From positions 1 to 31,102 of the forward strand of contig JACQIC010000078.1 in assembly GCA_016198725.1 (NCBI GenBank): a stretch of 31,102 nt of DNA. Reading direction: 5' to 3'. The stretch is from Candidatus Aenigmatarchaeota archaeon. GTDB lineage: Archaea > Nanobdellota > Nanobdellia > Woesearchaeales > ARS49. Below are positions 5,341-28,440 of the stretch, one piece after another (within the stretch, counting starts at the first letter, position 1; each line of letters opens with the position of its first letter). Below the pieces are notes generated by a model. The model did no database searches, was not told where the DNA came from, and was given only the letters and a program-made list of their open reading frames with translations. The position numbers and the translations under genes were made by a program.

Positions 5341-6527
5341 AACTTTATCCTCTGAGGGCTGAACATTACAAGTATGACAATAAATATGGGACAGTTCATC
5401 TTGCAGGCAGATCGCCAAAATATCATGTTGCAAACATTTACAAGCCGTTGCTCGCAATTATTGACGCATTGGGTGGGTGCCTGTTTTTCTTTAACAAGCT
5501 AAAAAAACAGCCAGCACAGCCAAAAAAAATACTTGTAATACGGCTTGATCATTTAGGTGATGTGGTGATGACTCTTCCAAGTTATGCTGCGCTTAAACAA
5601 CTTTATCCGCACGCCGAAATTCACACTCTTGTGCGTGGATTTGCAGAAGATCTTTTTTATCAGAATACGAATGTTGACAAAGTAATTCCATTTGACCCGC
5701 CATGGTTTGCCCGTGATAAAAAAACTTCATTGTGCGGCACGCTTAAGTTTCTTCTGAATCTCCGCAAACAAAACTACGATTTAGTTATAGAACTTCATGC
5801 TGATCCCAGAAATATCATTGCCGCAGCGCTTATAGGAGGTTATAGGCTTGGTTATGGAATTCGCGGATTTGGTTTTCTGCTGCACAAAATAGTTGAATTT
5901 CCAGTTTTCAACCATATGATTGAGAGTAATATTGCGTTAATCAGGGCTTTAGGGTACAGTGGGAGAACACCATTAGAGGCGTTAAAACTCGCATATTCAT
6001 CAGAGGATGAACAAGTGATTAATCAATACGGTTATTCTGGCAGGAAATATGTTATTATCAACCCCGGAACTGGACGGCAAAACAAGTACTGGGTTGCAGA
6101 ACGATGGGCGCAAGTGGCTGATGCGCTCATAAGTGAGGGATATCTTGTTATTCTGACAGGCAGCGCGGCAGACATTCAAGAATGCGGAAAAATACAAAAT
6201 GTCATGAACTGCAAGGCAGCTATGCTTGCAGGAAAGACAACACTGCGACAATTATTAGCGCTTGTTGCGCACGCGTCGCTTGTTCTCTCTCCAGATACGG
6301 GTATTGCTCATTTCGCGGTAAGTCTTGGCACGCCTTCAATAACTTTATTTGGGCCGATACCGCCTGCGTTGGCAGGATATGAAGATGCCAAGCACAAGTG
6401 CATAGTAAAAATACTGCCGTGCAGTTACTGCGCAAAAGCAGTATGCCCGCGTGCAGACAAGCCAAATGAATGTATGATGCTTATCACTGCAGGAGAAGTT
6501 ATTGCAACAGCAAAGGGAATATTATAA
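5337..6527 (+). CDS. glycosyltransferase family 9 (WaaF/RfaQ heptosyltransferase-like)
   Basis: KKILVIRLDHLGDVVMTLP, INPGTG..KYW..ERWAQVAD, LAGKTTLRQL, SPDTGIAHFA, ITLFGP. ATGA overlap with the upstream GT2. Confidence 0.9.
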   Translation: MKLYPLRAEHYKYDNKYGTVHLAGRSPKYHVANIYKPLLAIIDALGGCLFFFNKLKKQPAQPKKILVIRLDHLGDVVMTLPSYAALKQLYPHAEIHTLVRGFAEDLFYQNTNVDKVIPFDPPWFARDKKTSLCGTLKFLLNLRKQNYDLVIELHADPRNIIAAALIGGYRLGYGIRGFGFLLHKIVEFPVFNHMIESNIALIRALGYSGRTPLEALKLAYSSEDEQVINQYGYSGRKYVIINPGTGRQNKYWVAERWAQVADALISEGYLVILTGSAADIQECGKIQNVMNCKAAMLAGKTTLRQLLALVAHASLVLSPDTGIAHFAVSLGTPSITLFGPIPPALAGYEDAKHKCIVKILPCSYCAKAVCPRADKPNECMMLITAGEVIATAKGIL

Positions 6528-6532
6528 GCTCT

Positions 6533-6638
6533 TATAATAGACGAAGTAAATAATTAATATGAAATTAATATGATTTACTCGTCTATTATATTCGACAGAC
6601 ATAACAATTTATCATTAATTATATACTTATGTCTGTCG
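6533..6638. repeat. tandem pair of long inverted repeats with AT-rich loops
   Basis: TATAATAGACG 6533-6543 / CGTCTATTATA 6580-6590 (plus inner AGTAAAT/ATTTACT) and CGACAGACATAA 6593-6604 / TTATGTCTGTCG 6627-6638. Confidence 0.8.
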
Positions 6639-6692
6639 TTATAACAGTTATAGTTCTTAACATTTATAAATCATGACACGTGTGAAACACAG

Positions 6693-8099
6693 ATGCGTCT
6701 CATTAAGAACAGTGGCTACACGCTTGCAAGCAGCGTGCTTGGGGGTTTGTTTTTTTTCTTTGTCAACGCGCTTGTTGCAAGGCATCTTGGTGCAGAGGGT
6801 TTTGGAGCGTACACTTTCGTGCTTGCATTTCTTTCTTTCTTCTTTATGCTCGCGAATATTGGTATGGACAGCGTGATTGTCCGTGAACTTGCAAGAAACT
6901 GGAATGCAAAAGACAGCATTATTGGCGGAGCGGTTATGTTAAGAACGCTGTTTTCCCTGGCGGCAATGATACTTTCAGTTGCGCTCATTCGCGTACTTAA
7001 TTATTCAGAGTTTATTCAGTATGGAGTACTTTTGGTGGCGCTCACTCTTTTGACGAATTCTCTAGTGAGCCTTTGGTGGTCGGTATTTCAAGCGCGATTT
7101 GAAATGAAGTGGTATGCGCTCACAAATTTGAGTGGCAGAGCAGGAATTTTGGCGCTGACAATTTTCTTTATACTGCAAAAGCAAGGAGTGCTTTGGCTTT
7201 TGGCAGTGCACACGCTCGCAGGAATAGTGCAGTTGATTATTGTGTGGGTGCTTGCGGCAAAACGCATCACGTTCACGCTGAAATTTGACAAAGAACGCAT
7301 CCTGTTTCTGCTCAGGGAATCATGGCCTTTGGCGCTTGCAGGACTTTTCATTTCACTGTATTATAGAGTTGACGTGTTTATGCTTTCATTCTGGCGGCCT
7401 CAACAAGACATAGGGTACTACGCGGCAGTATACACTATTACAGAAGCGCCTGCGATGATATCAGTTGCCTTGAACGCATCGCTTTATCCGCTGCTTTCTC
7501 AACTGCACACGGTAAAAAACAAGTTCCAGCAATACAGTGCGTGGTCTGTGAAAGCGATGATGGTGCTTGCGTTGCCAATGGCAATAGGTACAACCATACT
7601 CGCACAGCCGGTAATAAACGTAGTTTATGGACAAGCATACACTGCATCAGTTCCTGTACTGCAGGTGCTTATCTGGGCAGGAGGAATAATAATGACAAAC
7701 GTCATAATCGCATCAATGCTCAATGCGCTTGGCGCCCAAAAAATAACAACAACTGCAACAGGATTCAACCTGATGCTTAATGCAGCATTGAACTTGTACG
7801 CTATTCCTCGCTATGGAATTATGGGTGCTGCGGCAACAACTGTTGCAACAGAACTTGTTTGTGGATTAATGATGTGGTATGCGTTATACAAAAAGAATTA
7901 CCAGATAATCCACTATTCTTGGCTCAGGTGCGTTTTTGCGGCAATACTGATGGGTGCAGTTGTTTACACAATAAAATCACTTCAACTTCCAATTGTCATA
8001 ATTGTCGGGATGCTTTCATATGCAATATTTTTGTTTCTTCTCAAAGGAATCACCGCGGCAGACATAAATATTTTTCACAGAATATGGAGAATGAAATGA
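6693..8099 (+). CDS. Wzx-like oligosaccharide flippase (MOP superfamily)
   Basis: LVARHLGAEGFGAY, IVRELAR, LLRESWPL, IYYRVD-like SLYYRVDVFML, IGYYAAVY, LYAIPRYGIMGAAATTVATE; about 12-14 TM. TTTATAAA at 6663-6670. Confidence 0.9.
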   Translation: MRLIKNSGYTLASSVLGGLFFFFVNALVARHLGAEGFGAYTFVLAFLSFFFMLANIGMDSVIVRELARNWNAKDSIIGGAVMLRTLFSLAAMILSVALIRVLNYSEFIQYGVLLVALTLLTNSLVSLWWSVFQARFEMKWYALTNLSGRAGILALTIFFILQKQGVLWLLAVHTLAGIVQLIIVWVLAAKRITFTLKFDKERILFLLRESWPLALAGLFISLYYRVDVFMLSFWRPQQDIGYYAAVYTITEAPAMISVALNASLYPLLSQLHTVKNKFQQYSAWSVKAMMVLALPMAIGTTILAQPVINVVYGQAYTASVPVLQVLIWAGGIIMTNVIIASMLNALGAQKITTTATGFNLMLNAALNLYAIPRYGIMGAAATTVATELVCGLMMWYALYKKNYQIIHYSWLRCVFAAILMGAVVYTIKSLQLPIVIIVGMLSYAIFLFLLKGITAADINIFHRIWRMK

Positions 8100-8902
8100 T
8101 ATCTGCGGTGCTTGTTGTGCACAACGAAGAACAACGAATCAGGCCCTGCCTCGAGAGCATTAAGCGTGTTGTTGATGAAATTATCATAGTGCATGATGGA
8201 GCATGTACTGATAAAACACTTAGCATTTGCAGAGAGTACAACGCAAAAGTGTTTGTGCGCCCATATATTGGCGAAGCAGAACCGCACAGGTGTTTTTCAT
8301 TCCAGAAATCAAAAGGTGACTGGGTGCTTCAAATCGATGCTGACGAAAGATTGTCTAAAGAAGCTCAGCATTGCATAAAACAGCTTGTCAAAAGCTCAAC
8401 AGCAGATGCTTACGCTTTTCGTTGGGAAGACCCTGAGGAAATACGCATTCTTGGTATTTTCGCCATTAAAAAATACAAGCCCTGCCTTTTTCGTAAAAAC
8501 AGAATAAAATTCACTGGGCTGGTGCACGAGCAGACAGGAACTACTGGAAGGATGGTAACGTCAGAAGTTCTTCTGCATCACAAGCCAAAACCATTGTCAA
8601 ATCCTGAAGTATTCAGAAAAAAGACAAGGCACTGGGCGCAAGTGGCGGCGCAAACATTGGTAAAAAGAAACATGGCAAAAAAACCCGCTTTTTATTACCT
8701 ATTCAAAGCGCCAATTTGGGCAATGATTTATTTATTCATCTATTTATTCTTTAAAGCATATATTCTCAGCGGCAAAAACGGATGGCTGATGGCAAAATAT
8801 CATGCAACATACAATTTTCTGCTTAACTATAACATTTATCGCGCAAAACTCGAGAGGGTAAATTTCAAAAAAACCAGTTCGTCATCAAAAGCAAAACCGT
8901 AG
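8096..8902 (+). CDS. glycosyltransferase family 2 (WaaE/KdtX-like beta-glycosyltransferase)
   Basis: Start at the ATGA overlap with the flippase stop. ISAVLVVHNEE, IIIVHDGACTDKT, WVLQIDADE, FTGLVHEQ, LLHH. Confidence 0.85.
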   Translation: MISAVLVVHNEEQRIRPCLESIKRVVDEIIIVHDGACTDKTLSICREYNAKVFVRPYIGEAEPHRCFSFQKSKGDWVLQIDADERLSKEAQHCIKQLVKSSTADAYAFRWEDPEEIRILGIFAIKKYKPCLFRKNRIKFTGLVHEQTGTTGRMVTSEVLLHHKPKPLSNPEVFRKKTRHWAQVAAQTLVKRNMAKKPAFYYLFKAPIWAMIYLFIYLFFKAYILSGKNGWLMAKYHATYNFLLNYNIYRAKLERVNFKKTSSSSKAKP

Positions 8903-8965
8903 CGTTCTCTTCAAAACCACAGTCATTAAAACCGTAGCCGTTATCTTGCCACCGTAGCCATCCCC
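8870..8965. repeat. degenerate tandem array of AAAACCGTAGCC-like units (15-20 nt period)
   Basis: ACCGTAGC at 8896, 8931 and 8951; variants ACCACAGTC at 8916 and AAAACCAGTTCG at 8870. Confidence 0.6.
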
Positions 8966-8966
8966 A

Positions 8967-9012
8967 GAATTTAGCTGAACGCAGCTGCGAAGCAGCGGAG
9001 TTCGCTAAATTC
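8967..9012 (+). repeat. REP-like hairpin, copy 2 (GCTGC-GAA-GCAGC core)
   Basis: GAATTTAGC 8967-8975 / GCTAAATTC 9004-9012, inner GAAC/GTTC, core 8984-8996. Confidence 0.7.
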
Positions 9013-9083
9013 GTACCGTAAGACCTGCAGCCAGGTGCGTATGTGCATAATATTTATAAGCGCCTTTCTTCTTTTTTTAAAAC

Positions 9084-10655
9084 ATGAAACGCGTTCTTTT
9101 TATTTATCCATCTTCCTCGCCAGACTTGCCGAATAATGAGGTTGATTTTTCAAGATACAAAAGCGTTCCTGTTGGTCTTCTGGCAATAGCCACTTACATC
9201 AAAAATAATGGGTATGATGTTCGAGTCATTGATGGGCGGGCGTACACAAAAGCTCAGGTCCGTGAATGGGTTGAGCAGGAAATCAAAAACCCTGAACTGT
9301 TGATGGTGTGTGTTTCCCTGACAACCATACAACTTAAGCATGGACTGCAGTTGTGCGATATGATAAAGGAAAAAAGAAAAGAGCTTCCGATTGTTTTTGG
9401 GGGAATACACCCTATTATGTTTCCGTATCAGACAATTATGGATTCTGCTGCGGATTATGTCGTGTATGGTGAAGGTGAATACGCGTTGCGTGACATTCTC
9501 TCGTATGTACAGACGGGAGCGCCAAAACTTGACAGCATAAAAGGAATCATGTATAAGAAACAAGGCAAGCCGGTCATGACTCCGGTGCAACCGGGCATTG
9601 ACATCAACGACGTGCCTGATCCGGATTATGACCTTCTTGAAATAGAAAAGTACATTGAGAGGGAATTTATCACCAACCTTGGCAAGACAAAAAAAATGCG
9701 CGCAATGGACATTTCAACAAGCAGAGGGTGTCCGTATCGGTGCAATTTTTGCACAAATACGATGGATGTGTTCAAACGTTACAGGCCGCTTGCGCTTGAC
9801 AGAGTTTTCAAACTCATTGACTTGTGCGTTGTCAAATACAGGGTTAACCACATTTGGTTTAATGACGACTTGTTTTTCGTGCACAAAAAAAGACTGCAGG
9901 ATATTGCCAATTATATAATTGAAAAGGGGTACTTGCTCAGTTGGGAATCAAATGCGCGTGTTGACCAGTTTAGAGATGGGTTTTTGGATGATGACCTGCT
10001 TGCTTTGCTCAAGAAAAGCGGGTGTTTCGCGTTAAGGATGGGTATGGAATCAGGAAGCAATAGAGTACTTGAACTGATGAAAAAAGACTCAACAGTGGAT
10101 GACATCATCCATGCGGTCAGCCAGTGTGAAAAACACGGCATCATCGCAATAGGGAACTTCATTTGCGGTTTTCCGACAGAAACAAAAGAGGAAGTGCTTG
10201 CTACTGGCAGACTGATTTTGAAGCTTAAAGAAATTTCTCCAAATGGCATGTTTTTTTCGCCTGGTGTCCTGAGACCTTACCCTGGCACTGAAATGTATGC
10301 GATGTGCAAAGAATATGGTTTCAAAGAGCCGAATACGCTTCGTGAATGGGCAAGCCAAAAAGAAGGAAACTGGTTTTTTGTAGAAACAAAAGATCTTCCT
10401 TGGATAAAAGAGCCGGAATGGCTTGAAAATTTCCAAGTATTTTTTTATATTCTGACTGTTTACAAAACGCATCTTTTGTTGAACCAGCCATTATCATTAC
10501 CATGGCGCATAATGGGCAAAATAGCTCAATGGAGGTTTGAACGAGACTTGTGGAGTTTCAGCATTGAGCCAAGCATGCTTTTGAAACTGAAAAAGATATT
10601 GGATGGCGATTCACTGCTCGGTAAGTTGTTAAAAAAAATAGTGTACTACGTTTAA
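9084..10655 (+). CDS. B12-binding-domain radical SAM protein (class B methyltransferase-like)
   Basis: N-terminal cobalamin-type domain (PVGLLAIA, IVFGGIHP, YGEGE), STSRGCPYRCNFC (CxxxCxxC), DDLF, GMESGS, FICGFPTET, LRPYPGT. TTTATAAG at 9053-9060. Confidence 0.9.
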   Translation: MKRVLFIYPSSSPDLPNNEVDFSRYKSVPVGLLAIATYIKNNGYDVRVIDGRAYTKAQVREWVEQEIKNPELLMVCVSLTTIQLKHGLQLCDMIKEKRKELPIVFGGIHPIMFPYQTIMDSAADYVVYGEGEYALRDILSYVQTGAPKLDSIKGIMYKKQGKPVMTPVQPGIDINDVPDPDYDLLEIEKYIEREFITNLGKTKKMRAMDISTSRGCPYRCNFCTNTMDVFKRYRPLALDRVFKLIDLCVVKYRVNHIWFNDDLFFVHKKRLQDIANYIIEKGYLLSWESNARVDQFRDGFLDDDLLALLKKSGCFALRMGMESGSNRVLELMKKDSTVDDIIHAVSQCEKHGIIAIGNFICGFPTETKEEVLATGRLILKLKEISPNGMFFSPGVLRPYPGTEMYAMCKEYGFKEPNTLREWASQKEGNWFFVETKDLPWIKEPEWLENFQVFFYILTVYKTHLLLNQPLSLPWRIMGKIAQWRFERDLWSFSIEPSMLLKLKKILDGDSLLGKLLKKIVYYV

Positions 10656-10658
10656 TTT

Positions 10659-12317
10659 ATGGTGCGGGCATTATTTGTGTTTGCAGTCTTTCTCGCATTC
10701 ACTGTCAATCTTATAACAAGTGCAGTCTTCACGCCAATGACTTATGATGAGCCGTTGCACATTGCTTCTGGCTATACAAAATTTTGGCTGGGTGACTTTC
10801 GTATGAACACTGAGCAGCCGCCGCTTGCGCATTACGTGCAGGGATTGATGGTTAGTTTTGCCAAGCCGTCTTTGAATCTTAACCATTCAAGTTGGACTGA
10901 AAAAAACATGACGCAGTTCAGCCAAAGATTCTTTTTCACAGACAACACGGTGCCTGACACTTTTCTTTTTCTTGGACGAATTCCAAGCATTCTCTTTGCT
11001 CTCTTGCTTGCGGTCGTTGTTTATTTTTTTGCTGCAGAACTCTACGGTTATTGGGCGGGCATATTGAGCATTGCACTGTTGAGCTTTGAGCCGAACATAA
11101 TTGGACATGGCAGTGTGGCAACAACAGACATGGCATTCACATCATTGATGCTTATTACCATATACTGTTTGTGGAAGTATGCGCAAAAACCTGCAATGAA
11201 GCAATTAATGTGGTTTGCGATTTCGTTTGGCTTGTTGCAGCTGACAAAGTATACTGCAATACTAACTGCACCAATATTTTTTGTGCTGATTTTGGCAGTT
11301 GTATTATTGCAGAAAAGAAAACTTTTCACGTTGGCAAAAAATGCAGTTGCAGGTATTTTCATTACGGCATTAGTTGCATGGATTATAATTAACGCCGCCT
11401 ATTTTTTCAGCGGAACAGGAACTTCGATTGGTTCTGCGATGAATGTGGATGAGCATCTTGATGAACAGTACGCGCCTCAAAAAATTTTATCAAACTTGCC
11501 GGATTGGATTGTTTACTCGCTTCCAAATCCGCTTCCTTACCCGTATGTCAAAGGTCTTGGATTTGTGATGTTTGAAAGCAAAAGCTCCATTCGAGTAAAA
11601 TTGTTCAATGTTGTGAGCGTGAAGGGATTCAGAAGTTATTACTTGTTTGCATTTTTGTTTAAAACACCGCTTGCACTTATTGCGCTTTTCACTATTTCGC
11701 TGTTTATTCTGTTTAGAAATATGTTATTTAAAAAAATGGCCAGTGCTGAACTGATAATTCTGATTTTCGTGATTTTCTTTTTTACTGCATTCTCGTTTAC
11801 ATCCAAACAGATTGGGATACGCCACATATTGCCAGTTTATCCGCTGTTCATTATCCTTGCAGGAAAACTTTCAGGAATTAAAACAATGAAGTGGGTGATT
11901 ATTATACTTGTTGCGCTCAATGTGCTGAGCGGCGTTAGTAGTCTTCCAAAACCACTCTCATACTACAATGAAATAATTGGAGCTGAGAACGGGTGGAAAG
12001 TATTTGCAGACTCCAATACTGACTGGGGGTTTGACTTTGATGAACTATTAAAATACTTAGCTGAAAAAAACATGACAACTGCGTCAATGAAAATACTGAC
12101 CACTCAAGATTTTGCGTTTTACAACATACTCGCGAGAAGCGTGCCTATTGTCTGCGAACGAGGAATACACCTGGCATCTGTACACGCAGTTTATCTTAAC
12201 GGAGCGCAATGGCTGTCAAGTTATTCTCCAACAGAACAAATAGGAACTTCGATATTTGCATACAATATCAGCAGCTGCAGTACACCGGCTGTGGCGCACC
12301 TACAGTTTAATAAATAA
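10659..12317 (+). CDS. GT-C membrane glycosyltransferase (GT39/PMT-like)
   Basis: MTYDEPLHIASG, NTEQPPL, RIPSILF, EPNIIGHG..ATTD, LTKYTA, IGIRHILP, DSNTDWG. Confidence 0.85.
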   Translation: MVRALFVFAVFLAFTVNLITSAVFTPMTYDEPLHIASGYTKFWLGDFRMNTEQPPLAHYVQGLMVSFAKPSLNLNHSSWTEKNMTQFSQRFFFTDNTVPDTFLFLGRIPSILFALLLAVVVYFFAAELYGYWAGILSIALLSFEPNIIGHGSVATTDMAFTSLMLITIYCLWKYAQKPAMKQLMWFAISFGLLQLTKYTAILTAPIFFVLILAVVLLQKRKLFTLAKNAVAGIFITALVAWIIINAAYFFSGTGTSIGSAMNVDEHLDEQYAPQKILSNLPDWIVYSLPNPLPYPYVKGLGFVMFESKSSIRVKLFNVVSVKGFRSYYLFAFLFKTPLALIALFTISLFILFRNMLFKKMASAELIILIFVIFFFTAFSFTSKQIGIRHILPVYPLFIILAGKLSGIKTMKWVIIILVALNVLSGVSSLPKPLSYYNEIIGAENGWKVFADSNTDWGFDFDELLKYLAEKNMTTASMKILTTQDFAFYNILARSVPIVCERGIHLASVHAVYLNGAQWLSSYSPTEQIGTSIFAYNISSCSTPAVAHLQFNK

Positions 12318-12337
12318 AACAACTTATTTGAAATAAA

Positions 12338-13051
12338 ATGCCTGCACTTTCAGTTATAATTCCAGCATACAATGAAGAGCAGAGGCTGCCATCCACTATC
12401 AAGGAAATAAAAGCTTATCTTGACAGCAAAAAATACGATTATGAAATCATTGTTGTTGATGATGGCAGTAACGACAACTCAGTGGGTGTGGTTAAACAAC
12501 TTAATCTTTCAAAAGTAAAACTGCTTGTTCATGAAATTAACAGAGGAAAGGGGGCGGCTGTAAAAACAGGTATGCTTGCCGGAAAAGGTGAGTATTTGCT
12601 GTTCACAGACGCAGATCACTCCACTCCAATCGAAGAATTGGAGAAATTCATGCAGTACATAAAACAATACGACATAATAATCGGAAGCAGAAGCATCAAA
12701 GGTGCAAAGCTGGAAAAAAGACAGCCGTTGTATAGAATGTTCATTGGAAAAATCTTCAACAAACTAGTAAGGCTAATAACAGTAAAAGGGCTGATAGATA
12801 CGCAGTGCGGGTTTAAGCTGTTTACTGGAAAATGTGCGCGCCAAATTTTTGCCAAACAAACACTCGACAGGTGGAGTTTTGATGTTGAAATACTGTATAT
12901 TGCAAGAAAATACGGCTACAAAATTCTTGAATTGCCAGTCAGATGGGTGAACAGGCGGGAAAGCAGGGTTGACCCTTTGAAAGACTCGTTGCGGATGCTC
13001 CGCGACCTTTTCGTTATTCGCTGGAATGATGTGCGAGGCAGGTATGATTAA
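12338..13051 (+). CDS. dolichyl-phosphate beta-glucosyltransferase-like GT2 (ALG5/DPG synthase-like)
   Basis: LSVIIPAYNEEQRL, IVVDDGSND, NRGKGAAVKTG, LFTDAD, DTQCGFKLF, WSFDVEIL, ELPVRW. Confidence 0.9.
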   Translation: MPALSVIIPAYNEEQRLPSTIKEIKAYLDSKKYDYEIIVVDDGSNDNSVGVVKQLNLSKVKLLVHEINRGKGAAVKTGMLAGKGEYLLFTDADHSTPIEELEKFMQYIKQYDIIIGSRSIKGAKLEKRQPLYRMFIGKIFNKLVRLITVKGLIDTQCGFKLFTGKCARQIFAKQTLDRWSFDVEILYIARKYGYKILELPVRWVNRRESRVDPLKDSLRMLRDLFVIRWNDVRGRYD

Positions 13052-14750
13052 CGAGAATAAAATATTTCTTATCTTCATTTTTGTTATTGCGTACTTGCAG
13101 TGGGGTTTGTTTGCAGATTTTCAGCACATTCCAGGACCAGTATTTGGAGGAGACCTTTACAGGGAAAGAGGATTTGTGCAGCACATATTAAATGGAGAGC
13201 CGTATTGGCAGGATCCTTATTTCGCAGGAGAGCTCGAGTTTTATCCTCCGATAGGATATGTTCTTGCCGCGAAAACAGTCCAGATGACTGGATGGGATGT
13301 TGAAACAGTGCTTAATTATTTTCCAATTCCTGTATTTATTCTGACTGCACTTTCTTATTATTATCTTGGACAGGTTTTTTTTAACAAAACTTTTGCTTTG
13401 TTGCTTGTTGGTGTTGTTGCAACATTTCAGCTTGTTATTCCAAAACATACTCTTGGGATTGCAATGGCGTTCAGCGTGTTAAGCCTTGCTTTCTATGCAG
13501 CTAATCTCAAGGTTTTTTCACGCAAAAAACAAATACTTTCTGGATTATTTCTTGGCTTGACAGGGCTTACTCATTATTCTGCATTTCTTATTACTGCAAT
13601 GATTCTTTCCATTGGCGCGCTTCTTGAAATTGCTTACAGGATTAAAACTGAAAAAAAAATAAGCGTGTTATCTGAGTTTGCAAACAAGCTTGTAATTATA
13701 GTTATAATGGGACTTGCAATGGCATCTTTCTTTATTTATCCTCTTTATGTAAAGTACGGGCTTGCCACACCAAACCAGACACAAATCTATTCCTTATTCA
13801 ATCCATATGCGCACGGAATTGAATGGGTCATAGGACAGTTTTGGAATACTTTATTCCCTGACAACATACTCAGATGGCTATTTGGAGCAATGGCAGTATT
13901 GGGCATTTGGGCATGCACGGTTCAAAGAAAAAAACAAGAACAGCGCACTGCTTTATTTTGGATGATTGCAGTGATTATAGGAACAAGCCATTACGTAATC
14001 ACAATCCCGCTTTTCAGGACAAGTGTTGTTCCTCCGCATTTATGGGCGGGAATGAATATTCCTTTTTCTTTAATGATTATTTTCGGTCTGAGAACATTAA
14101 CAAAAACTCTTGAACTGAAAACAGGCAAGCCGCAATTAACATATTTGGCAGGTTTTGCTGTTCTGATTATTCTGCCGCTTATATACCAGCAGTATACCAA
14201 TTATAACGCAGATAGGTGGGTGCAGTATGGAAAAACAATGGACCCGTCAACGCAAGCATTTTACGATGTTGGCAAATGGATAATGCAAAACACGGGAACA
14301 AATGAAGTATTTCTGGCGCATGACGAGAGCAGTTTTGCAATTAATGCTCTTACGGGGCGCAAGCTTGTGATGGTAAGAAGAACTCACGCAAGCCCTTATG
14401 TTGATGTGGACAAGAGATACGCAGATTCATTTGTAATGCTTTACGGCACAAATAAAACAAAAATTTCTGAACTGATGAAAGAGTACAACGTGAAGTATTT
14501 GTATGCAGACAGATTCATGATGGACACACCAATGGCAACTGCCGCAAAGTATGCAGATTATCTGCGGCAGCATGGCGTGAATTTTACTGTTGGCAAATCA
14601 AGATATGACCCTGCAAGTACTGACACTCCACTGTATGATGTTGTTGCAGTGCAGGGAATGCCGCAGGCAATTTTGAATTTAAGCACAGAAGTTCAGCAGT
14701 TTGCTGCAGGACAGCAAATGTATGCGATGATTTATAAGTTCGAACAGTAG
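13044..14750 (+). CDS. GT-C-like polytopic membrane protein (putative polyprenyl-phosphate-sugar transferase)
   Basis: N-terminal TM then PGPVFGGDLY..RGF, FYPPIGY, GLTGLTHY; about 11-13 TM and a soluble C-terminal domain. Start at ATG 13044 overlaps the upstream stop. Confidence 0.6.
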   Translation: MINENKIFLIFIFVIAYLQWGLFADFQHIPGPVFGGDLYRERGFVQHILNGEPYWQDPYFAGELEFYPPIGYVLAAKTVQMTGWDVETVLNYFPIPVFILTALSYYYLGQVFFNKTFALLLVGVVATFQLVIPKHTLGIAMAFSVLSLAFYAANLKVFSRKKQILSGLFLGLTGLTHYSAFLITAMILSIGALLEIAYRIKTEKKISVLSEFANKLVIIVIMGLAMASFFIYPLYVKYGLATPNQTQIYSLFNPYAHGIEWVIGQFWNTLFPDNILRWLFGAMAVLGIWACTVQRKKQEQRTALFWMIAVIIGTSHYVITIPLFRTSVVPPHLWAGMNIPFSLMIIFGLRTLTKTLELKTGKPQLTYLAGFAVLIILPLIYQQYTNYNADRWVQYGKTMDPSTQAFYDVGKWIMQNTGTNEVFLAHDESSFAINALTGRKLVMVRRTHASPYVDVDKRYADSFVMLYGTNKTKISELMKEYNVKYLYADRFMMDTPMATAAKYADYLRQHGVNFTVGKSRYDPASTDTPLYDVVAVQGMPQAILNLSTEVQQFAAGQQMYAMIYKFEQ

Positions 14751-14764
14751 GGTATTGATTATTC

Positions 14765-15835
14765 TTAGGGTGTCTTCTGGAGTTCGTATTCTATTTGTTG
14801 TTGAAATCTTTCTCTGAGCTTGTACGTATTTCCGTGCAGGGCATATGCGTTCCAGCCTTGCAATACTTCAAGAACGTCCCATGCAGAAATAATTCCACAT
14901 TTATAATCAGCCAGTAATGCATCAAGTCTTGCGCGTATTTTTTTGAAATTGCGTGTTCTGACAAGTTTGTACTGGTAAAAAATGCGAAAACCAAGAAAGC
15001 TAACACCACGTCCCAATGGAATGATTTTGCATTTTGTAGGGTGGAGTTTGATTTTTAATGTCTTAATAAATTCCGTGATTTTTCTTTCATGTTCTTGTAA
15101 AGCTTTTTTTGAACGGTGGAGTATGACAAAGTCATCAACGTATCGAATATAGTATTTTGCTCGTAAGGTGTGTTTCACGAATTGGTCGAGCTCGTTCAAG
15201 TACACGTTTGCAAAGAACTGGCTCGTCCAGTTCCCCAGAGGCATGCCTTTGCCCGGAGTTCCTGAATCATAATTTTTAAGAACGCGCTGGACAAGCCAAA
15301 GAACGTATTCATCTTTTACGCGTTTTTTGATTATGCCGAGCAAAACAGCATGATCTACGGTTTCGAAATAGTGCCTGATGTCTGCTTTAAAGACGAAACA
15401 TTGAACAAAGTTTTTGTTTTGCGCACCGGCAACTTGTTTGCCATTTTGCGTTACTTTGCGCTTGAATTCATCAAAACGCTGAATAGCAGGAAGTGTGCCC
15501 TTTCCTGCACGACTTGCATAACTATCATAGATGAATAAAGGTTCAAAGATTGGCTTCAGGATGTTGACGAGAGCGTGATGAATGATGCGGTCTCGAAATT
15601 CGCTCACACAAATAACTCGTGTCTTTGGATCACGCAAAACAAATTTTCTTAAGGCGCGAGGTTTGTAAGTTTGTGTGCGCAATTCTTTTAGTAGATTGCA
15701 CAAATGAAGCTGCCAATGTTTATTGAATTCAATCATACAAGGATTGCCGAGCTTGCCTTGTTTTGCTTGTTCGTATGCGTGCTCAAGACTCTCAAAAGTG
15801 CATATGTTTTTCCAAAGATGGTTGTACGTTTTCAT
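14765..15835 (-). CDS. DGR-class reverse transcriptase
   Basis: PKTRVI..SEFRDRIIHHAL, FIYDSYASRAGKG, KADIRHYFETVDH, GMPLGNWTSQFFANVYLNELD (SQ motif typical of DGR RTs), YIRYVDD, FLGF. 356 aa with no maturase or endonuclease extension. Confidence 0.95.
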   Translation of the reverse strand: MKTYNHLWKNICTFESLEHAYEQAKQGKLGNPCMIEFNKHWQLHLCNLLKELRTQTYKPRALRKFVLRDPKTRVICVSEFRDRIIHHALVNILKPIFEPLFIYDSYASRAGKGTLPAIQRFDEFKRKVTQNGKQVAGAQNKNFVQCFVFKADIRHYFETVDHAVLLGIIKKRVKDEYVLWLVQRVLKNYDSGTPGKGMPLGNWTSQFFANVYLNELDQFVKHTLRAKYYIRYVDDFVILHRSKKALQEHERKITEFIKTLKIKLHPTKCKIIPLGRGVSFLGFRIFYQYKLVRTRNFKKIRARLDALLADYKCGIISAWDVLEVLQGWNAYALHGNTYKLRERFQQQIEYELQKTP

Positions 15836-15848
15836 CCAAATTAAAAGT

Positions 15849-16162
15849 CCTCGTAGCCGCTATTGACAATTGCGCTAAGGGTTAACCATTCAGAGAGCAG
15901 GCCAACTGTTGTTGATGTTGTCGTTGGCATTGATGTTGAACCTGTCGTTGTTGTTGATGTTCAACACCACGGCCCGCTCAGTAGCCCTGCCATCTCTTTG
16001 GCGTCACTGCCGTTTCAAACGTTCGCTCTGTTTTGAGGTACTGGCTGTCACGGCTGTATTTCATGGCAATGCCGCAAGCGCAGACTCTTGCCTTGATGGC
16101 AGGACGTGTGGTCTCCCTCTTGTCAAGACGCAGGTCATGCGTTATATGACAGCTACGAGGGC
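15849..16162 (-). ncRNA. putative structured DGR template RNA (5' leader + TR + spacer)
   Basis: TATA box at 16192-16183 and three mutually compatible long-range helices (16160-16149/15860-15849; 16126-16120/15869-15863; 16103-16095/15994-15986). Ends are inferred. Confidence 0.6.
15885..15984 (-). repeat. DGR template repeat (TR)
   Basis: Minus strand reads ...GTGTTG AAC ATC AAC AAC AAC GAC AGG TTC AAC ATC AAT GCC AAC GAC AAC ATC AAC AAC AGT TGG CCT GCT CTC TGA ATG GT, with 10 AAY codons. It aligns ungapped to 16247-16346. Confidence 0.95.
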
Positions 16163-16182
16163 GATAAAAACTCAAATACATT

Positions 16183-16192
16183 CATATAAAAA
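16183..16192 (-). promoter_or_regulatory. TATA box for the TR-RT transcript
   Basis: TTTTTATATG on the minus strand, about 23-32 nt upstream of the first leader helix at 16160. Confidence 0.55.
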
Positions 16193-16224
16193 TTTAGTGA
16201 ACGTGACATTCATTTTTGTCGCCA

Positions 16225-17079
16225 TCAATTTTTCGGCGCGCCGACGACCACCCAGAGAGCAGGCCAACTGAGGTTGATGTAGCCGCAGGCATCGATGTAG
16301 AACCAGTCGCTGTCGTTGATGTACAACACCACGGCCCGCTCAGTAGATCTTGTGTTCAAAGCTGGAGCCCAAACTCTTACTTCTCTAAGTTCTCCATCAG
16401 AACAAGGTTTTGACAAGTATTGGAACACTGCGCCAGCTTCTTCATATCCTTCTCCAAACAATGCTTGCAATAATGGCTTGGCATTTTCAGGAATTTGTTC
16501 AACAGTGCCATGCTTTGAAGAAGATTGTTTTTTGGCCAATAGAATGTAGGCACATGAATCAGCAGAAGTTTGTTTGGTGAACTCTGGGACTTGCAAGGTT
16601 TCAGTACGTAACTGTCCATCAATGTCGCGATAAGAAAGTGTTGCTTCTGCACTATTTTCTGTTGGCACTTTATATTCGATTTTCATTCCAGTGTGAATAA
16701 CATATTGATTAAAAATATCTCGCAGCTTATCACGACATGCCACTACCTCTTTAGTTTGGTCCGAATGCATCAAATGACGAACAACCTGATAAAAAATCTT
16801 CAAGTTCATGACCACTTTTCCAGATTCTTGCTGATAAGCCTGCCATCCTGACACATTATTGCTCACAATATTATTGTTGTCTTTAATTACATTAGGAACG
16901 AGTTTTGCATTAATACTACTGCCGTTGTAAGCCAAATTTTGGAAAAAGTATTCACCATTCTGACACTCGACATTTACTTTGTCAAAGCTAAAAAGTATTT
17001 TCTCCAAGTCTTTCAGTTCATCAGTAAAAACTCTAATGGTTTGCCCAAAAAGTCTGAGTTCAGGATTAAGCTCTGACAT
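16225..17079 (-). CDS. DGR target protein with C-terminal variable region (probably C-type-lectin fold), 284 aa
   Basis: VR encodes ERAVVLYINDSDWFYIDACGYINLSWPALWV at the extreme C-terminus. ATG 17079 is preceded by GGAGG and overlaps the upstream ORF end. CLec fold is inferred from known DGR targets. Confidence 0.88.
   Translation of the reverse strand: MSELNPELRLFGQTIRVFTDELKDLEKILFSFDKVNVECQNGEYFFQNLAYNGSSINAKLVPNVIKDNNNIVSNNVSGWQAYQQESGKVVMNLKIFYQVVRHLMHSDQTKEVVACRDKLRDIFNQYVIHTGMKIEYKVPTENSAEATLSYRDIDGQLRTETLQVPEFTKQTSADSCAYILLAKKQSSSKHGTVEQIPENAKPLLQALFGEGYEEAGAVFQYLSKPCSDGELREVRVWAPALNTRSTERAVVLYINDSDWFYIDACGYINLSWPALWVVVGAPKN
16233..16244. other. GC-rich palindrome just 3' of VR (candidate retrohoming hairpin/cruciform)
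   Basis: TCGGCGCGCCGA is a perfect 12-bp palindrome 2 nt after the end of TR/VR homology and is absent after TR. Confidence 0.6.
16247..16346 (-). repeat. DGR variable repeat (VR)
   Basis: Offset +362 from TR. 12 core mismatches (6 A>T, 5 A>G, 1 A>C) change 10 codons; 2 further A>G at the 3' end (TGAAT vs TGGGT). Confidence 0.95.
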
Positions 17080-18565
17080 TTCCAAACCTCCAGTGCGGTT
17101 TTGTAAAGTAAAGATGCTCGCCAAATCTTTCAGTATCACCGCCAGAAGCCATAAATTCAAATCCGGCGGGAATGTTCAAATACCTCTGACCTTTCAGGTC
17201 ATAAAAGAAAGGATGATTGTCTCTAAGTTCAAAAAAAAGCTTTGCGAACCCGACAGCAAGATTTGCGAACAATTGCTTATTATGGTCGCGCATGTGAAGT
17301 TTTTCTTTCCGCTCATGCTCCACCATACTCTCAAAATCAGCGAGTTGTGTTTGCAATTCATTTCTCACAGATTCAAGTTTTAATCTTATTCTGGAGCATA
17401 CATCAATAAAGTAATTCTTGTCAATTTCAACATCACCGAAGTTTTTGAGTTCTGCATTTATTTCAGATTTTGGAAAATATCTTTCAGCGATTCGTACGGC
17501 ATTATTTGTAAGAGAACGGTGTACGGTTTGTCTGGCAGCGCCTGCTTCAGCCTGCTTCAGTTGCGCAAAAGAAAGAGAAACTCCTTCAATCTGCGCACTG
17601 TACTGAGCACGCTGTTTTGCTGTTTCCCTGTCAAATGCAGAAAGAGCATGTTCTCCTTCCATCCAAATATCCAGTGCAAGCACTGCTGTCAAATAATCAC
17701 GTTCAGTTGAATTCAAATCATGTGACTCACGTGATGGTTCAATGTTCAATCTTTTTTCATCCGCTGAAATTCCAACTCTTTTCATCATTTCACTACTATC
17801 TTTTGCTTTTTGGCTGGCAACGAAACCTCCAATAAGAACAACATCAAGCGGATAAACTTCCTGTAAAACACTTCTTAAAACACTGTCCTCTGAATAAAAA
17901 CTGTCTACAGCAGGATGAGCTTCGTTATTAATATACTTTAGAAAGTTGCGCGGGTCTTCACTTTTTTCGATTTTTTCAACTGCACAAATCGCCTTAATCA
18001 TATCATTGCCTTCAAAGACATGAACGTGAGAAAGTATATCAGGAACTTTGCCTCCACGTCTGAAATAGTCAAAAACAGCTTGTCCTTCAGCATTAAGTTG
18101 CAAGTAACCAGTAATATCTTCGGTATACGTTCTATTGGTGAACCAAAATTCAAAAATATCAGCGCCGTTGGCTAATTTTGGAACTGACTCAAAAAGAGCT
18201 GCGGCAGCAATGCAATGAAGAGATTCGCTTGCTGACAAAACACGCTCAGTAAAGCCTCCGCTAACTTTTGCAAACAATGATGACGAATTTTTTAATATTG
18301 CATACGCCACAGGATCGGGAAATACACGCACCACATTCACCAAACGTTCTGCATTACTATTTCCCAAAACTTTCAAAACATCCTTTCCATAAACGTACCA
18401 GGCAAGCAACATGTCTGAACTGTGTTCAAATTGCGAACCAAATTTTATCACATTATTCTGGCCAGCAAGTTTTCTGACTAAGACTTCAAGACCTTTAGGG
18501 CTTACTTTTTTGCCAAGTTTAGCATTTAACTGCAAGTTCAAATTAACCAAATCATCCATGACCAT
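17066..18565 (-). CDS. hypothetical protein (499 aa, helical/coiled-coil C-terminal half) coupled to the DGR target
   Basis: Long ORF with TTTATAAA at 18588-18581; start may be 18559. 14-bp overlap with the target gene. No family recognised. Confidence 0.75.
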   Translation of the reverse strand: MVMDDLVNLNLQLNAKLGKKVSPKGLEVLVRKLAGQNNVIKFGSQFEHSSDMLLAWYVYGKDVLKVLGNSNAERLVNVVRVFPDPVAYAILKNSSSLFAKVSGGFTERVLSASESLHCIAAAALFESVPKLANGADIFEFWFTNRTYTEDITGYLQLNAEGQAVFDYFRRGGKVPDILSHVHVFEGNDMIKAICAVEKIEKSEDPRNFLKYINNEAHPAVDSFYSEDSVLRSVLQEVYPLDVVLIGGFVASQKAKDSSEMMKRVGISADEKRLNIEPSRESHDLNSTERDYLTAVLALDIWMEGEHALSAFDRETAKQRAQYSAQIEGVSLSFAQLKQAEAGAARQTVHRSLTNNAVRIAERYFPKSEINAELKNFGDVEIDKNYFIDVCSRIRLKLESVRNELQTQLADFESMVEHERKEKLHMRDHNKQLFANLAVGFAKLFFELRDNHPFFYDLKGQRYLNIPAGFEFMASGGDTERFGEHLYFTKPHWRFGNVRA

Positions 18566-23836: not shown

Positions 23837-23913
23837 CTCATCATTAGTCACTTTTAAATTTTGTGAATGAACATGAGTAACATTTAAAAAGAGCCTGCAA
23901 TTAACACGCGATA

Positions 23914-24020
23914 GGACGGTCACAGGGGCAGGGTTCACCCAGACTCATTCGAACCTGGCAGTTAAACCAGCCTCCGTACCGGACTGTACTGCACTACGCG
24001 GGAACTCCGGTAAGCTGTCC
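23914..24020 (+). rRNA. rrf: 5S rRNA, archaeal type, unlinked
   Basis: Helix I GGACGG/CTGTCC; CATTCGAAC, GTTAA, GTACCGGACTGTACTG and GGGAACTCCGG match archaeal 5S segments. TTTAAAAA at 23883-23890. Exact ends are uncertain by a few nt. Confidence 0.85.
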
Positions 24021-24034
24021 ACTTTACTTTCATC

Positions 24035-24135: not shown

Positions 24136-24221
24136 TCGTCAGGGAAGAACCTCACTGATATGCGGCAAATAGGCGAGCCACGTACGAAAAATATTAATAT
24201 TAATTGTGATAGTGTGTATTG

Positions 24222-26618
24222 ATGAAAGTGTTGTTTGTTTTTGTGATGAGCTTGTTGTTTCTTCCGGTCGTTTACTCTTATGGTGTTTCGGATTTTCCTG
24301 CTCCGTTTGTCATTGACGGTAAACCGCAGTCTAATCTTGCAATTGTTGTTGGTGATAGGGCGGCAGCGTCTGATGTTATTGCCGCACTTGATATTGGGGT
24401 GTTTTTACAGCAGTCGGGTGTTAAGGGTGAGTATGCGCCTTTTCTTTCAGAGGATGCTGTTTCGGTTGGTAGCGTGTCTGAAGTGGTTGCGATTAACAAA
24501 ACATTGGGTGCTGTAAGGCCTGTTTTTACTGAGGTGGATCTTGATTTGCTTAAAGGCGGGTTGATTGTTACGCAGGAGGGAAGCACTGAGTATAACCAGT
24601 ATTTGCGTCTTCCGCAGGGTGGTCCTGCAGGAGTTATTATTCTTGCAGAGACTGATGGTATTGTCGGGCTTGCGCTGGCGTGGGTTGCGAATTTTCCGCT
24701 GTTTACTTGGGAGCTTGAGTTTGAGGAGGGTCTTACGAGCAGGATTGAGGGTGGGAAGCTTGTTGACCTTCAGGATGAGGATGTGATGATTTTGGGCATG
24801 CCGTTTGTTATTGTTGATGCGAGTTATTCGACTGTTACTAATCGGGCGAGCATTACTTTTTTGGGGGGCGGGTTGTCAGCGCTTCTTGGCGAGAATGAGC
24901 GGGAGACTTTTGTTCTTGATGGTAAGGAATACGAGGTTGAGGTTTTAATTATTTCAGAAACTGCTGATGATGGCGACGGCACTGTTAAGTTCAGGATTAA
25001 TGGCGAGATTACTGATGCGCTTGAGGATGGCGAGACTGATTTTCTTGCTGACGGCACTCTTGTGGCTGTGAGGGATATTGTTTCCAGTGCGAAGGATATT
25101 CAAAAAAGTATTGTCCAGTTTTATCTTGGCCCGCACGTCATCACTTTTTTTGACGGGAACGCGTCTGATGACGCGAGCGCTCCTGCAAGTGTGTTGGTTA
25201 ATCTTGAAAGGATGACGAGCAGTTCGTCTTCTATTATGGGGAGTGAGGTTGAGTCGAACAGGACATTTAGGCTTGAAAAGATTAATTATACTTTGTATGA
25301 TGAGAATCTGGTGAGCAGTTCGTTTGTGTTTCCAGGCAAAACTTTGCGTTCACAGCAGGAAAAACAGGAGGGGTTTCTTACTCCTGTTTGGGATTTGGTG
25401 TATCTTGGGCTTGCAGAGGTCGGCGAGACGTATGTGGTGCTTGATCCTGTGGCAGATCATAGTTATGATATTCAGTTCACGAATCAGGAGGGCATATTTT
25501 ATGACATTCCTTTTATTACTAATGACCGTACGAGTGGGAACTTGAAGTTTGGGGATGATAATGACGATCTTTGGTTTTGCGAGCCTGCGAATAACACCAT
25601 GTATCAGGTGACTGATGGTGATTTTTTTGTGCTTTCTAACTGTGATGGTCCTGCAAAGGATGATACTTGTTTTAGTCATGTGCTTCGCTATGATAGTGTT
25701 GATACGACGCAGAACGTGCTTTCTTTTACAGATCTTGGAATGGGGACAAGGGCTGTTGTTTTTGACAATGCAACGCGTGAGGCTGGACTTGTTGCGGGTG
25801 GTGTTTCGTATGCAGTGTTTGTTGACCCTGTGGGACCGCATAATGTGAGTATTGACTTGGATGGAAATGGCGTTGTGCAGGGTGATTGTGCTTATGTCGG
25901 TATTCAGGGTGAGGGGATGTTGTTGTTTGGAGGCAATAATACAAATGAAAGCTCATTGCAGGGTTCTAAGGCGTTTGTGGTTGGCAACGCGAGTAATCTT
26001 ACTGTTATAACTTTGGCTTCTAATTTTGAGGATGCAGGTCAGGATGAAAATTTGACAATTGAGTTTGAGGCGCGTCCGAATAACAAGATTGGTTTGCTTG
26101 CGAAGGGTATCAGGGCGTCTTCTGGAGGGGTTTTTGGTCCGCTTCAGACTGCGCGCAATGAGGAATTGCAGTGGGCTTTGACGCAGTATGGGCTTTGGCT
26201 TGACATTTCTGACCCGCCTGATTCTCCTGAAGTTGTGACGATTGCGTACCCGCTTCAACAGCGTACTGGTCAGGTTTATATTACTAAGAGTCCTTTTAGT
26301 GTTGCTCGGCAGGGCGATGGCGCTTCTGCTTCTGTTGGCTTAAATCCTATAGTTACTCCTGTCAGCAAGCTCGCCAGTGAGGTTGTTGACGTGTCTGAGT
26401 TTAACGCTGTTGTTGTTGGCGGTCCTTGTGTTAATGATGTTGCAGATGTGCTTATGCGGAAGCCTGAACCTTGCACGCTGCCATTTTTGAATGCGAGGGA
26501 GAATGTTACTTTTTTTGAGCATCTGAATGGTAATGTTGCTTTGCTTGTTGCAGGATTGTCTGCTGGAGATACTGAAAGTGCAGTTAAACAACTTTTGTCA
26601 AAGCAAAATTTTATATAG
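24222..26618 (+). CDS. S-layer family protein (Methanococcus/DPANN S_layer_N and S_layer_C type)
   Basis: Signal peptide, then DFPAPFV....LAIVVGDRAAASDVIAALDI; C-terminal AVVVGGPCVN and ALLVAG..AGDT; very acidic; 13 N-X-S/T sequons by my count. Confidence 0.85.
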   Translation: MKVLFVFVMSLLFLPVVYSYGVSDFPAPFVIDGKPQSNLAIVVGDRAAASDVIAALDIGVFLQQSGVKGEYAPFLSEDAVSVGSVSEVVAINKTLGAVRPVFTEVDLDLLKGGLIVTQEGSTEYNQYLRLPQGGPAGVIILAETDGIVGLALAWVANFPLFTWELEFEEGLTSRIEGGKLVDLQDEDVMILGMPFVIVDASYSTVTNRASITFLGGGLSALLGENERETFVLDGKEYEVEVLIISETADDGDGTVKFRINGEITDALEDGETDFLADGTLVAVRDIVSSAKDIQKSIVQFYLGPHVITFFDGNASDDASAPASVLVNLERMTSSSSSIMGSEVESNRTFRLEKINYTLYDENLVSSSFVFPGKTLRSQQEKQEGFLTPVWDLVYLGLAEVGETYVVLDPVADHSYDIQFTNQEGIFYDIPFITNDRTSGNLKFGDDNDDLWFCEPANNTMYQVTDGDFFVLSNCDGPAKDDTCFSHVLRYDSVDTTQNVLSFTDLGMGTRAVVFDNATREAGLVAGGVSYAVFVDPVGPHNVSIDLDGNGVVQGDCAYVGIQGEGMLLFGGNNTNESSLQGSKAFVVGNASNLTVITLASNFEDAGQDENLTIEFEARPNNKIGLLAKGIRASSGGVFGPLQTARNEELQWALTQYGLWLDISDPPDSPEVVTIAYPLQQRTGQVYITKSPFSVARQGDGASASVGLNPIVTPVSKLASEVVDVSEFNAVVVGGPCVNDVADVLMRKPEPCTLPFLNARENVTFFEHLNGNVALLVAGLSAGDTESAVKQLLSKQNFI

Positions 26619-26638
26619 TTGTTTGCGGAAAAAACATT

Positions 26639-27106
26639 ATGCTTTCGCCGTTTATCAAAAAGCTGATGTTTGCGCGTCAGTTTGTGATGTCTGATGGAAA
26701 GATTGAGGTGCTTGGCAGGAGGCAGGTCATGCTTCCTTTGGAGCTTTTGGCTGATTTGCAAAAGCTTAATGAAGTTGAAGCGTATAATGTTATTAAAGAA
26801 GATATCAGGATGATTATGGTTGCTTTTTCTCAAAAGATTGGTTCAAATTCTGCCGGTATGTTTAAGAATATTGAGGATATTTTTGAGTGTTTTGGTTTTG
26901 GAAAGCCTGAGATTGTGGTGCTTGACCAGAGTAAAAAGTCAGTGACTGTTCGTTTTCACGATACTCCTGTTCGGCTGGTGTCTGAGGTGGTTCTTCCTGG
27001 CGCGCTTGCAGGTACATTTTCATTTTTGTTTGGCAAAAAAGTGGACTGCACTTATAAGACGTGTCCTGTTAATGGCTCTGGGTTTTGCGAGTTTAGGATA
27101 GAATAA
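26639..27106 (+). CDS. V4R/HNOB-like small-ligand-binding protein
   Basis: DGKIEVLGRRQVMLP, FGFGKPEIV, LAGTFSFLFG, CPVNGSGFCEF (V4R-type C-terminus). Confidence 0.7.
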   Translation: MLSPFIKKLMFARQFVMSDGKIEVLGRRQVMLPLELLADLQKLNEVEAYNVIKEDIRMIMVAFSQKIGSNSAGMFKNIEDIFECFGFGKPEIVVLDQSKKSVTVRFHDTPVRLVSEVVLPGALAGTFSFLFGKKVDCTYKTCPVNGSGFCEFRIE

Positions 27107-27141
27107 AAAAAGTTTATGATAGAATAAAAAAGAGGTCGTGT

Positions 27142-28437: not shown

Positions 28438-28440
28438 AGC

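Follow-up and report, generated by a model that had tools for sequence, protein, structure and literature searches.

How a diversity-generating retroelement (DGR) primes and bounds the copying of its template when its cassette holds no avd gene is the question raised by a locus of Candidatus Aenigmatarchaeota archaeon (GenBank assembly GCA_016198725.1). The locus is known from the whole 31,102-nt contig JACQIC010000078.1 (contig C47 of the assembly), which is referred to here as the window, and the genes of the element are all on the minus strand. The element is very probably a complete AvpA-type DGR, carried on the chromosome of a groundwater DPANN archaeon that is Woesearchaeota-like, with an RNA leader on its template and without avd in the cassette. 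The minus-strand order is the target gene with its variable repeat (VR), a TATA box, an RNA of ~320 nt (RT-16 leader, template repeat (TR) and short spacer) and the reverse transcriptase (RT) gene. The spacer between VR and TR holds no gene and consists of a structured, covarying RNA that is joined to the 5' end of the TR.

The DGR signature lies in two repeats and in an element at the VR end, the latter resembling an IMH (initiation of mutagenic homing) site:

15885-15984, minus strand: template repeat (TR), with 31 A and 10 AAY codons; its last 8 nt (15892-15885, TGAATGGT) are the candidate IMH*
16247-16346, minus strand: variable repeat (VR), coding for target residues ~246-279; it departs from the TR at 14 positions, each of them a TR adenine
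16233-16254, minus strand: IMH-like element at the VR's 3' end, in the final codons of the target; it consists of TGGGTGG and then a GC-rich stretch that contains the palindrome TCGGCGCGCCGA

The repeat finder aligned the TR and the VR over 100 nt without gaps and with 86% identity. All of the mismatches (14/14) were changes from a TR adenine to a non-A in the VR on the coding (minus) strand, and none of the non-A positions differed (0/69). As the TR contains 31 A per 100 nt, the hypergeometric chance that 14/14 mismatches would fall on A is 6e-9. The gap-free, adenine-only alignment given in the preliminary description, which was made from the sequence alone, was reproduced in this way; a recount also agreed with its tally of ten changed target residues (N>Y x3, N>D x2, N>S, R>W, N>C, D>G and N>L), of 10 AAY codons in the TR, and of 29 A in the 94-nt core, which allow 4^29 = 2.9e17 DNA variants. 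Its reading of the 14 adenine differences as mutagenesis stood for 12 of them and not for the last two, where the AA at TR 15890/15889 is replaced by GG at VR 16252/16251 (TGA ATG > TGG GTG). The GG was found at the equivalent positions in 6/6 VR paralogues of the genome, and the DGRs of the DUSEL4 Nanoarchaeota have IMH TGGGGT against IMH* TGGAAT (Paul et al. 2015, PMC4372165). Because of this constancy and this match, the AA>GG pair is most likely a fixed difference at the IMH/IMH* boundary, which leaves 12 mutagenic differences. The TGGGTGG and the GC-rich stretch are common to the VR paralogues of the genome; whereas both TRs differ there (TGAATGG or GGAATGG). Judged from these sequences, an IMH is present at the 3' end of the VR, with a differing IMH* in the TR. 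The palindrome behind the VR (16233-16244) is perfect over 12 nt.

The second component of the cassette is the RT:

14765-15835, minus strand: DGR reverse TRANSCRIPTASE, 356 aa, intact open reading frame (ORF); RVT_1 2e-24

The best PDB match of this RT was 8ub7, the bRT of BPP-1 (E 2e-38), with the group II RTs at 5e-22. The best named relatives were the Fischerella RT (1e-73) and the RT of the archaeal-virus DGR of ANMV-1 (1e-65); the group II LtrA reached 7e-26 at best. The DGR-type motifs that had been noticed in the sequence, GxPLGNxxSQ and YVDD, are present as GMPLGNWTSQ and YVDD; whereas the group II RTs end in ...LSP at the former position. A maximum-likelihood tree was reconstructed with BPP-1, ANMV-1, VP585, Lagaffe, crAss LMMB and Fischerella as DGR references. 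The window RT was grouped with these known DGR RTs with 100/100 support against four group II RTs, so the phylogenetic placement suggested in the preliminary description put the enzyme inside the DGR clade and not outside it. Within the same tree it fell in a sub-clade of solely archaeal RTs that have an RT-16 RNA upstream. By motif and by tree, the RT is assigned to the DGR clade, with the [LIV]GxxxSQ-type motif instead of xxxLSP.

The VR is carried by the following gene:

16225-17079, minus strand: DGR target gene, 284 aa, made of one C-type-lectin-fold domain whose C-terminal end contains the VR

Neither Pfam nor NCBIfam gave a match to the target, whose family has few members (51 representatives among 1.84 billion). 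The AlphaFold model, built on a 46-sequence alignment, has a pLDDT of 93.2 and a pTM of 0.86. An exhaustive VIA-align structural search over 48,161 chains placed AvpA of Nanoarchaeota (5ioo, Z 9.4) and TaqVP (5vf4, Z 9.3) at the top; below them came dozens of C-type-lectin domains with Z 5-7 covering residues ~36-284, TvpA (2y3c, Z 5.3) and FGE-type proteins. Foldseek against the PDB returned weak C-type-lectin matches (best E 0.045). The VR codes for the last ~38 residues of the target, which form its last two β-strands. On its predicted structure, the target is a C-type-lectin-fold DGR variable protein, as the preliminary description had assumed. That DGRs of DPANN archaea diversify targets of this fold was already established by the published AvpA-type DGRs (PMC4372165, PDB 5IOO), and DGRs are very common in DPANN archaea (PMC8632793). 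The cassette type has thus been described before, and the present element is a member of the published DPANN/AvpA-type DGRs.

The region between the VR and the TR contains two further features:

15976-16164, minus strand: RT-16 (Rfam RF03019), a structured RNA forming the leader of the template; 71.6 bits (gathering score 50)
16185-16192, minus strand: TATA-like box TTTTTATA, 28 nt upstream of the 5' end of RT-16, a candidate archaeal promoter

The match to RT-16 covers the full Rfam model (positions 1-158). At its 3' end it reaches into the first bases of the TR, and its closing helix stops 2-3 nt before the TR/VR homology begins. In a plain MAFFT alignment of 30 copies, 16/18 of the pairs called by RNAalifold showed compensatory double changes, with almost no broken pairs; a sense ORF covering at least 80% of RT-16 was found in 4/34 copies only. 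The RNA was present in 35/151 sampled genomes of the phylum and in 0/14 control genomes. Its association with the template is positional: the TR starts -9 to +26 nt from the 3' end of RT-16 in 25/29 loci selected by RT-16, and in 4/5 copies of the own genome. The same 25/29 loci and 4/5 copies have an adenine-mismatched VR upstream and, where the locus extends that far, a YVDD RT ~0.8 kb downstream; the exceptions to this layout were mostly at or near contig edges. When loci were selected by their RT, RT-16 was located just upstream in 22/28 archaeal and 0/3 bacterial cases. Weinberg et al. (2017, PMC5737381), who published the motifs RT-1 to RT-19, described them only by their proximity to RT genes and linked none but RT-10 to a DGR. 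The window RNA therefore resembles the Rfam family in its full-length match above the gathering score and in the same helices, which covary in our own alignment; whereas RT-16 was published as 'near RT genes, function unknown' and is here the leader of DGR template RNAs. The TATA-like box also recurs. A match to TTTAWATA of at least 7/8 at -27 to -37 of RT-16 was found in 21/33 related loci, against 5.6% of control windows (p ~2e-11), and this points to the template RNA probably having its own promoter.

The 5' end of the RNA has a distant pairing partner, which is absent from the Rfam model of RT-16:

16149-16160, minus strand: 5' strand of the clamp helix, CCUCGUAGCUGU, pairing with 15849-15860
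15849-15860, minus strand: 3' strand of the clamp helix, GCGGCUACGAGG, 14 nt ahead of the RT start codon within the spacer of 49 nt between TR and RT

This clamp comprises 12 bp including 2 G-U pairs and is present in the minimum free energy fold of the 345-nt RNA (z -3.85). The duplex energy is -30.4 kcal/mol; the best of 28 control windows from the same locus reached -24.4. A family-wide RNAduplex comparison with same-locus controls gave a modest signal (Wilcoxon p = 0.005), and the distal site beat all controls in 5/29 loci. A clearer signal came from a search, with replication, for uninterrupted helices of 8 bp or more joining the 5' end of the RNA to the segment after the TR. Such a helix was found in 16/29 of the RT-16-selected loci against 27% of mismatched locus pairs, a null that is inflated because many loci share UGUCCYAG/CURGGACA. 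An independent, RT-selected replication set, with the windows fixed beforehand, showed a helix of at least 8 bp in 13/21 loci against 17% (p = 6e-6) and one of at least 10 bp in 9/21 against 3% (p = 5e-9). The clamp sequences vary from locus to locus. The RNA can join its 5' end to the segment immediately 3' of the TR by base pairing, and this clamp recurs in related loci. Its upstream strand is ~175 nt from the TR, and therefore RT-16 and the TR are enclosed together.

Comparison with the DGR of Bordetella phage BPP-1 (mtd-avd-TR-Sp-brt; Handa et al., PMC6182149; PDB 8ub7) showed several similarities. Both elements have adenine-specific transfer from TR to VR, an IMH/IMH* pair, a C-type-lectin target, an RT of the same clade (E 2e-38), and a template flanked by mutually pairing RNA segments. 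The cassette of the window differs in having no avd, a TR-RT spacer of only 49 nt and a candidate archaeal-type promoter. Moreover, the structured RNA is 5' of the TR here (RT-16, ~190 nt); whereas it is 3' of the TR in BPP-1 (Sp, Rfam Phage_DGR, 140 nt). As a control, the Rfam Phage_DGR RNA (RF03022) was found to cover the TR-brt spacer at 2750-2882 (minus strand) of the BPP-1 locus. Cryo-EM of the BPP-1 complex has shown a duplex of the segment just upstream of the TR with Sp 59-70 ('cPRT Stop'), which is needed for cis-primed reverse transcription, and, with no more than 40 nt of sequence upstream of the TR, this duplex was predicted in 207/278 DGRs that contain Avd (bioRxiv 10.1101/2023.10.23.563531). 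The upstream strand of cPRT Stop is adjacent to the TR in BPP-1; whereas that of the archaeal clamp is not, and for this reason the clamp is taken as an analogue of cPRT Stop rather than a demonstrated equivalent.

The closest published cassettes are the DGRs of the DUSEL4 Nanoarchaeota and of groundwater DPANN archaea (Paul et al. 2015, PMC4372165). They share with the window a tiny-genome archaeal host, the order target-VR, short spacer, TR and RT, a TGGGGT-type IMH against a TGGAAT-type IMH*, an IMH within the last codons of the target, and the occurrence of multiple and partial cassettes per genome. The window differs from them in that no significant hairpin was found after the VR, and the spacer ORFs drawn there as Avd-like correspond to structured RNA here. 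The target shares the C-type-lectin fold of AvpA (5IOO, Z 9.4), with ~7% identity over the structural alignment and a length of 284 against 209 aa. A more distant likeness concerns the retrons. The retron non-coding RNA (msr-msd) has a1/a2 terminal inverted repeats, so that its 5' and 3' ends pair and enclose the template, and its product is kept as multicopy single-stranded DNA (msDNA). The two systems are alike in a self-contained, RT-associated non-coding RNA whose paired ends enclose the template; however, the window RT scores outside the retron clade (48 bits with the retron models), and its product would be homed into a gene and not retained as msDNA.

The genome contains other DGR modules. 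Three DGR-type RTs were found (contigs C46, C47, which is the window, and C55), and five modules of RT-16 plus TR, on the same three contigs and on C86 and C26. No RT gene was found on C86 and C26 beside their modules, which are at C86:192-344 and C26:10290-10541; the latter contig has its own VR at 11503-11567. These two modules are candidates for templates served in trans. The TR on C46 is nearly identical to the window TR in the core and differs at several non-A positions. The comparison shows the window VR as written, by the evidence of its mismatches, from the window TR, because it has 0 non-A mismatches to that TR against several to the C46 TR. The search for further VR copies suggested at the outset was productive: several paralogous VRs were recovered, including one at the very edge of contig C81 and segments on C46. 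The C81 VR (C81:5-94) has 1 non-A mismatch to the window TR and 5 to the C46 TR, so that it is probably a second, remote target of the window TR. Its frame lacks the usual stop and stays open for 313 codons; that the contig ends within this VR may reflect population heterogeneity or paralogy. Four VR-like segments are located upstream of the C46 TR (C46:11060-15470), some with deletions of 9-12 nt relative to the TR, and they may be older or decaying targets.

A mechanism can be proposed from these parts. In analogy to the DGR of the Bordetella phage, the template RNA would have a promoter of its own, from which it would be transcribed. The RT would bind the RT-16 domain, which by the same kind of analogy might do the work of the spacer RNA that binds RT and Avd there, and perhaps that of Avd too; the clamp would bring both TR ends close to each other, in the manner of the cPRT Stop duplex. 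The cDNA synthesis might then start near the IMH* end of the TR, insert bases at random opposite adenines and stop at the closing helix of RT-16, after which the cDNA would replace the VR under guidance of the IMH, if these steps follow the known systems. The outcome would be up to ~1e17 variants of the ligand-binding face of the target. In its strongest form this proposal says that RT-16 (~190 nt), which is located 5' of the template and joined by the clamp with the 3' spacer, takes the place of Avd as well as of the downstream Sp RNA, that the RT needs only this RNA to prime, run and stop, and that RT-less modules of RT-16 and TR, two of them in this genome, are served in trans. This form is tentative, and we hold it with somewhat less than even confidence. 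No description of RT-16 as a template leader, of its own promoter, or of a long-range clamp in Avd-less DGRs was found in the searchable literature; a prior description is possible.

Several observations weigh against a complete, clamped and Avd-independent element. The priming site was sought and not located. The contiguous-helix search detects the clamp in only ~55-60% of loci, and the clamp overlaps the 5' strand of the local P1 hairpin of the Rfam model, so that the two pairings compete and may alternate. Folding of the palindrome region behind the VR as single-stranded DNA was no better than that of shuffled sequences (z 0.37), which gives no support to a canonical post-VR hairpin. The outgroup of the RT tree consisted of group II RTs only; the retron and Abi/UG NCBIfam models score far lower on the window RT (retron models 48 bits). 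An Avd-family gene exists elsewhere in the genome and may act in trans, so that the element is at most putatively Avd-independent. Finally, the dominant VR in the assembled contigs of all four samples is identical to that of the window. The last two observations are also the starting points of rival explanations.

No Avd-like ORF was found on either strand of the window cassette, and no avd in the other cassettes of the genome. Absence of avd from a DGR is common: it is present in about 74% of DGRs, and ~1/4 are without it (Wu et al., PMC5758913). The lone PF05635 (Avd-family) gene of this genome, at C87:306-773, matches the family at 95 bits (E 2e-27), and since none of the cassettes has an avd of its own, a single protein from C87 might serve all five template modules in trans, in which case the element would not be Avd-independent. 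This explanation is considered unlikely. The gene is located ~170 nt past the point where the archaeal 23S rRNA ends (3') and is linked to no DGR module, a position that fits the naming of the family, in which '23S rRNA-associated' four-helix-bundle proteins are classically found next to 23S rRNA. Moreover, no trans avd was found for avd-less DGRs by Wu et al. (PMC5758913). The Avd function might instead be hidden in the VR-TR spacer itself, which is spanned on the sense strand by a basic 67-aa ORF (15978-16181); ORFs of this kind were drawn as Avd stand-ins in the DUSEL4 cassettes (Paul et al. 2015, PMC4372165). However, this ORF is kept in 4/34 copies only and is broken already in a 74%-identical paralogous cassette, it has no Pfam match even at E 10, and the region shows the compensatory base-pair changes of an RNA. 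A small basic Avd-like protein is thus highly improbable, and this candidate was ruled out by its non-conservation, the missing Pfam match and the RNA covariation. An antisense Avd (architecture B3 of Wu et al.) was also considered and rejected; the 120-aa plus-strand ORF at 15909-16271 has no Pfam match and is kept in 8/34 copies. Since covariation is present and neither a conserved ORF nor a Pfam match was found, the small basic ORFs drawn as Avd equivalents by Paul et al. (2015) are, at least in this clade, an RNA domain.

Other rivals concern the history of the repeats. An ordinary duplication, with the adenine bias arising by chance or composition, has in its favour the existence of repeats and nothing more; it would have to accommodate the P of 6e-9, a DGR-clade RT ~50 nt from the TR and the same architecture in dozens of relatives. 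The probability left to it is negligible, as it was ruled out by that P value, the survey of RT-16/TR loci and the RT tree. A more serious alternative is that the cassette is intact but silent or recently retired, with the VR as the frozen product of past homing. The locus was recovered in four groundwater metagenome runs, which were examined as assembled (Logan) contigs. They contained one VR haplotype, no differences were seen across 15928-17300 in samples X1 and X3, and the only variant contig (16280 T>A in X2) fits a paralogous VR on C46. Contig breaks occur within the TR, a repeat that C46 has too, and two runs also show them at the edges of the VR. However, contigs conceal rare variants, and the four samples come from a single study. 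Furthermore, the RT ORF, the TR, RT-16, the clamp and the target ORF are all intact, and 0/69 non-A differences between the TR and the VR argue that homing was recent relative to the background mutation rate. A silent or retired cassette is therefore judged rather doubtful, though it deserves more weight than any other rival considered here. An element that is working or was recently working is favoured by the sequence indirectly, because all parts are intact and the TR and the VR agree at all non-A positions.

The assignment of the host rests on the genome as a whole, which comprises 1.07 Mb in 97 contigs with a completeness of 92%. The TATA-binding protein TBP is present; sigma-70 and tmRNA were sought in the genome and not found, and the 3' end of an archaeal 23S rRNA was found on contig C87. 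The tetranucleotide composition of the window contig is ordinary for the genome (r = 0.984), and an S-layer-type archaeal protein is encoded on it. The nearest relatives of the RT (50-70% identity) were mostly from metagenome-assembled genomes labelled Woesearchaeota, Nanoarchaeota or Nanoarchaeia, many of them from groundwater; the exception was a block of third-party assemblies labelled 'uncultured Methanosarcinales'. These results support a Woesearchaeota-like DPANN archaeon from groundwater as the host, and they bear out the archaeal, DPANN placement given earlier. A bacterial host was raised by the QueA and GT9 heptosyltransferase genes of the window, and was ruled out by the TBP, sigma-70, tmRNA and 23S tests together with the contig composition. 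The bacterial-type genes are probably acquisitions.

The surroundings of the cassette include one ORF in the same orientation:

17066-18565, minus strand: co-oriented ORF of 499 aa, overlapping the start of the target gene by 14 nt

No Pfam or NCBIfam match and no paralogue in the genome was found for this ORF, which may be an operon partner co-expressed with the target. A glycosylation cluster (2825-14750, plus strand) is located directly beside the DGR and includes PMT_2 mannosyltransferases, GT2, the GT9 heptosyltransferase, a flippase and a B12-radical SAM enzyme; this cell-surface context may be relevant to the ligand of the target. A full-length QueA of queuosine synthesis is encoded at 667-1674 (minus strand; Pfam E 1e-118), with its best relatives in Clostridia (~54% identity). 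Queuosine is a bacterial tRNA modification, and the gene looks like a horizontal acquisition. A solitary 5S rRNA gene is present at 23912-24023 (plus strand), adjoining the S-layer-type gene. The plus strand of 24219-31102 has a strong excess of G and T over several genes (GC skew ~+0.25 to +0.33, AT skew ~-0.22).

The cassette alone changes little, as it is one more DGR of a kind abundant in DPANN archaea. Its leader gives the orphan Rfam family RT-16 a concrete role, that of the leader of archaeal DGR template RNAs, and the pairing of the RNA ends indicates that Avd-less elements retain a long-range clamp around the template, a feature that can be compared with cPRT Stop in the Bordetella phage DGR. 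The priming and bounding of cDNA in Avd-less DGRs can thereby be tested directly, in a small and defined system (a 356-aa RT and an RNA of ~320 nt); such a compact two-part system is also of potential interest for targeted-diversification tools. If RT-16 does take the place of both Avd and the downstream Sp RNA, these archaeal elements would represent a protein-minimal, RNA-scaffolded form of mutagenic retrohoming.

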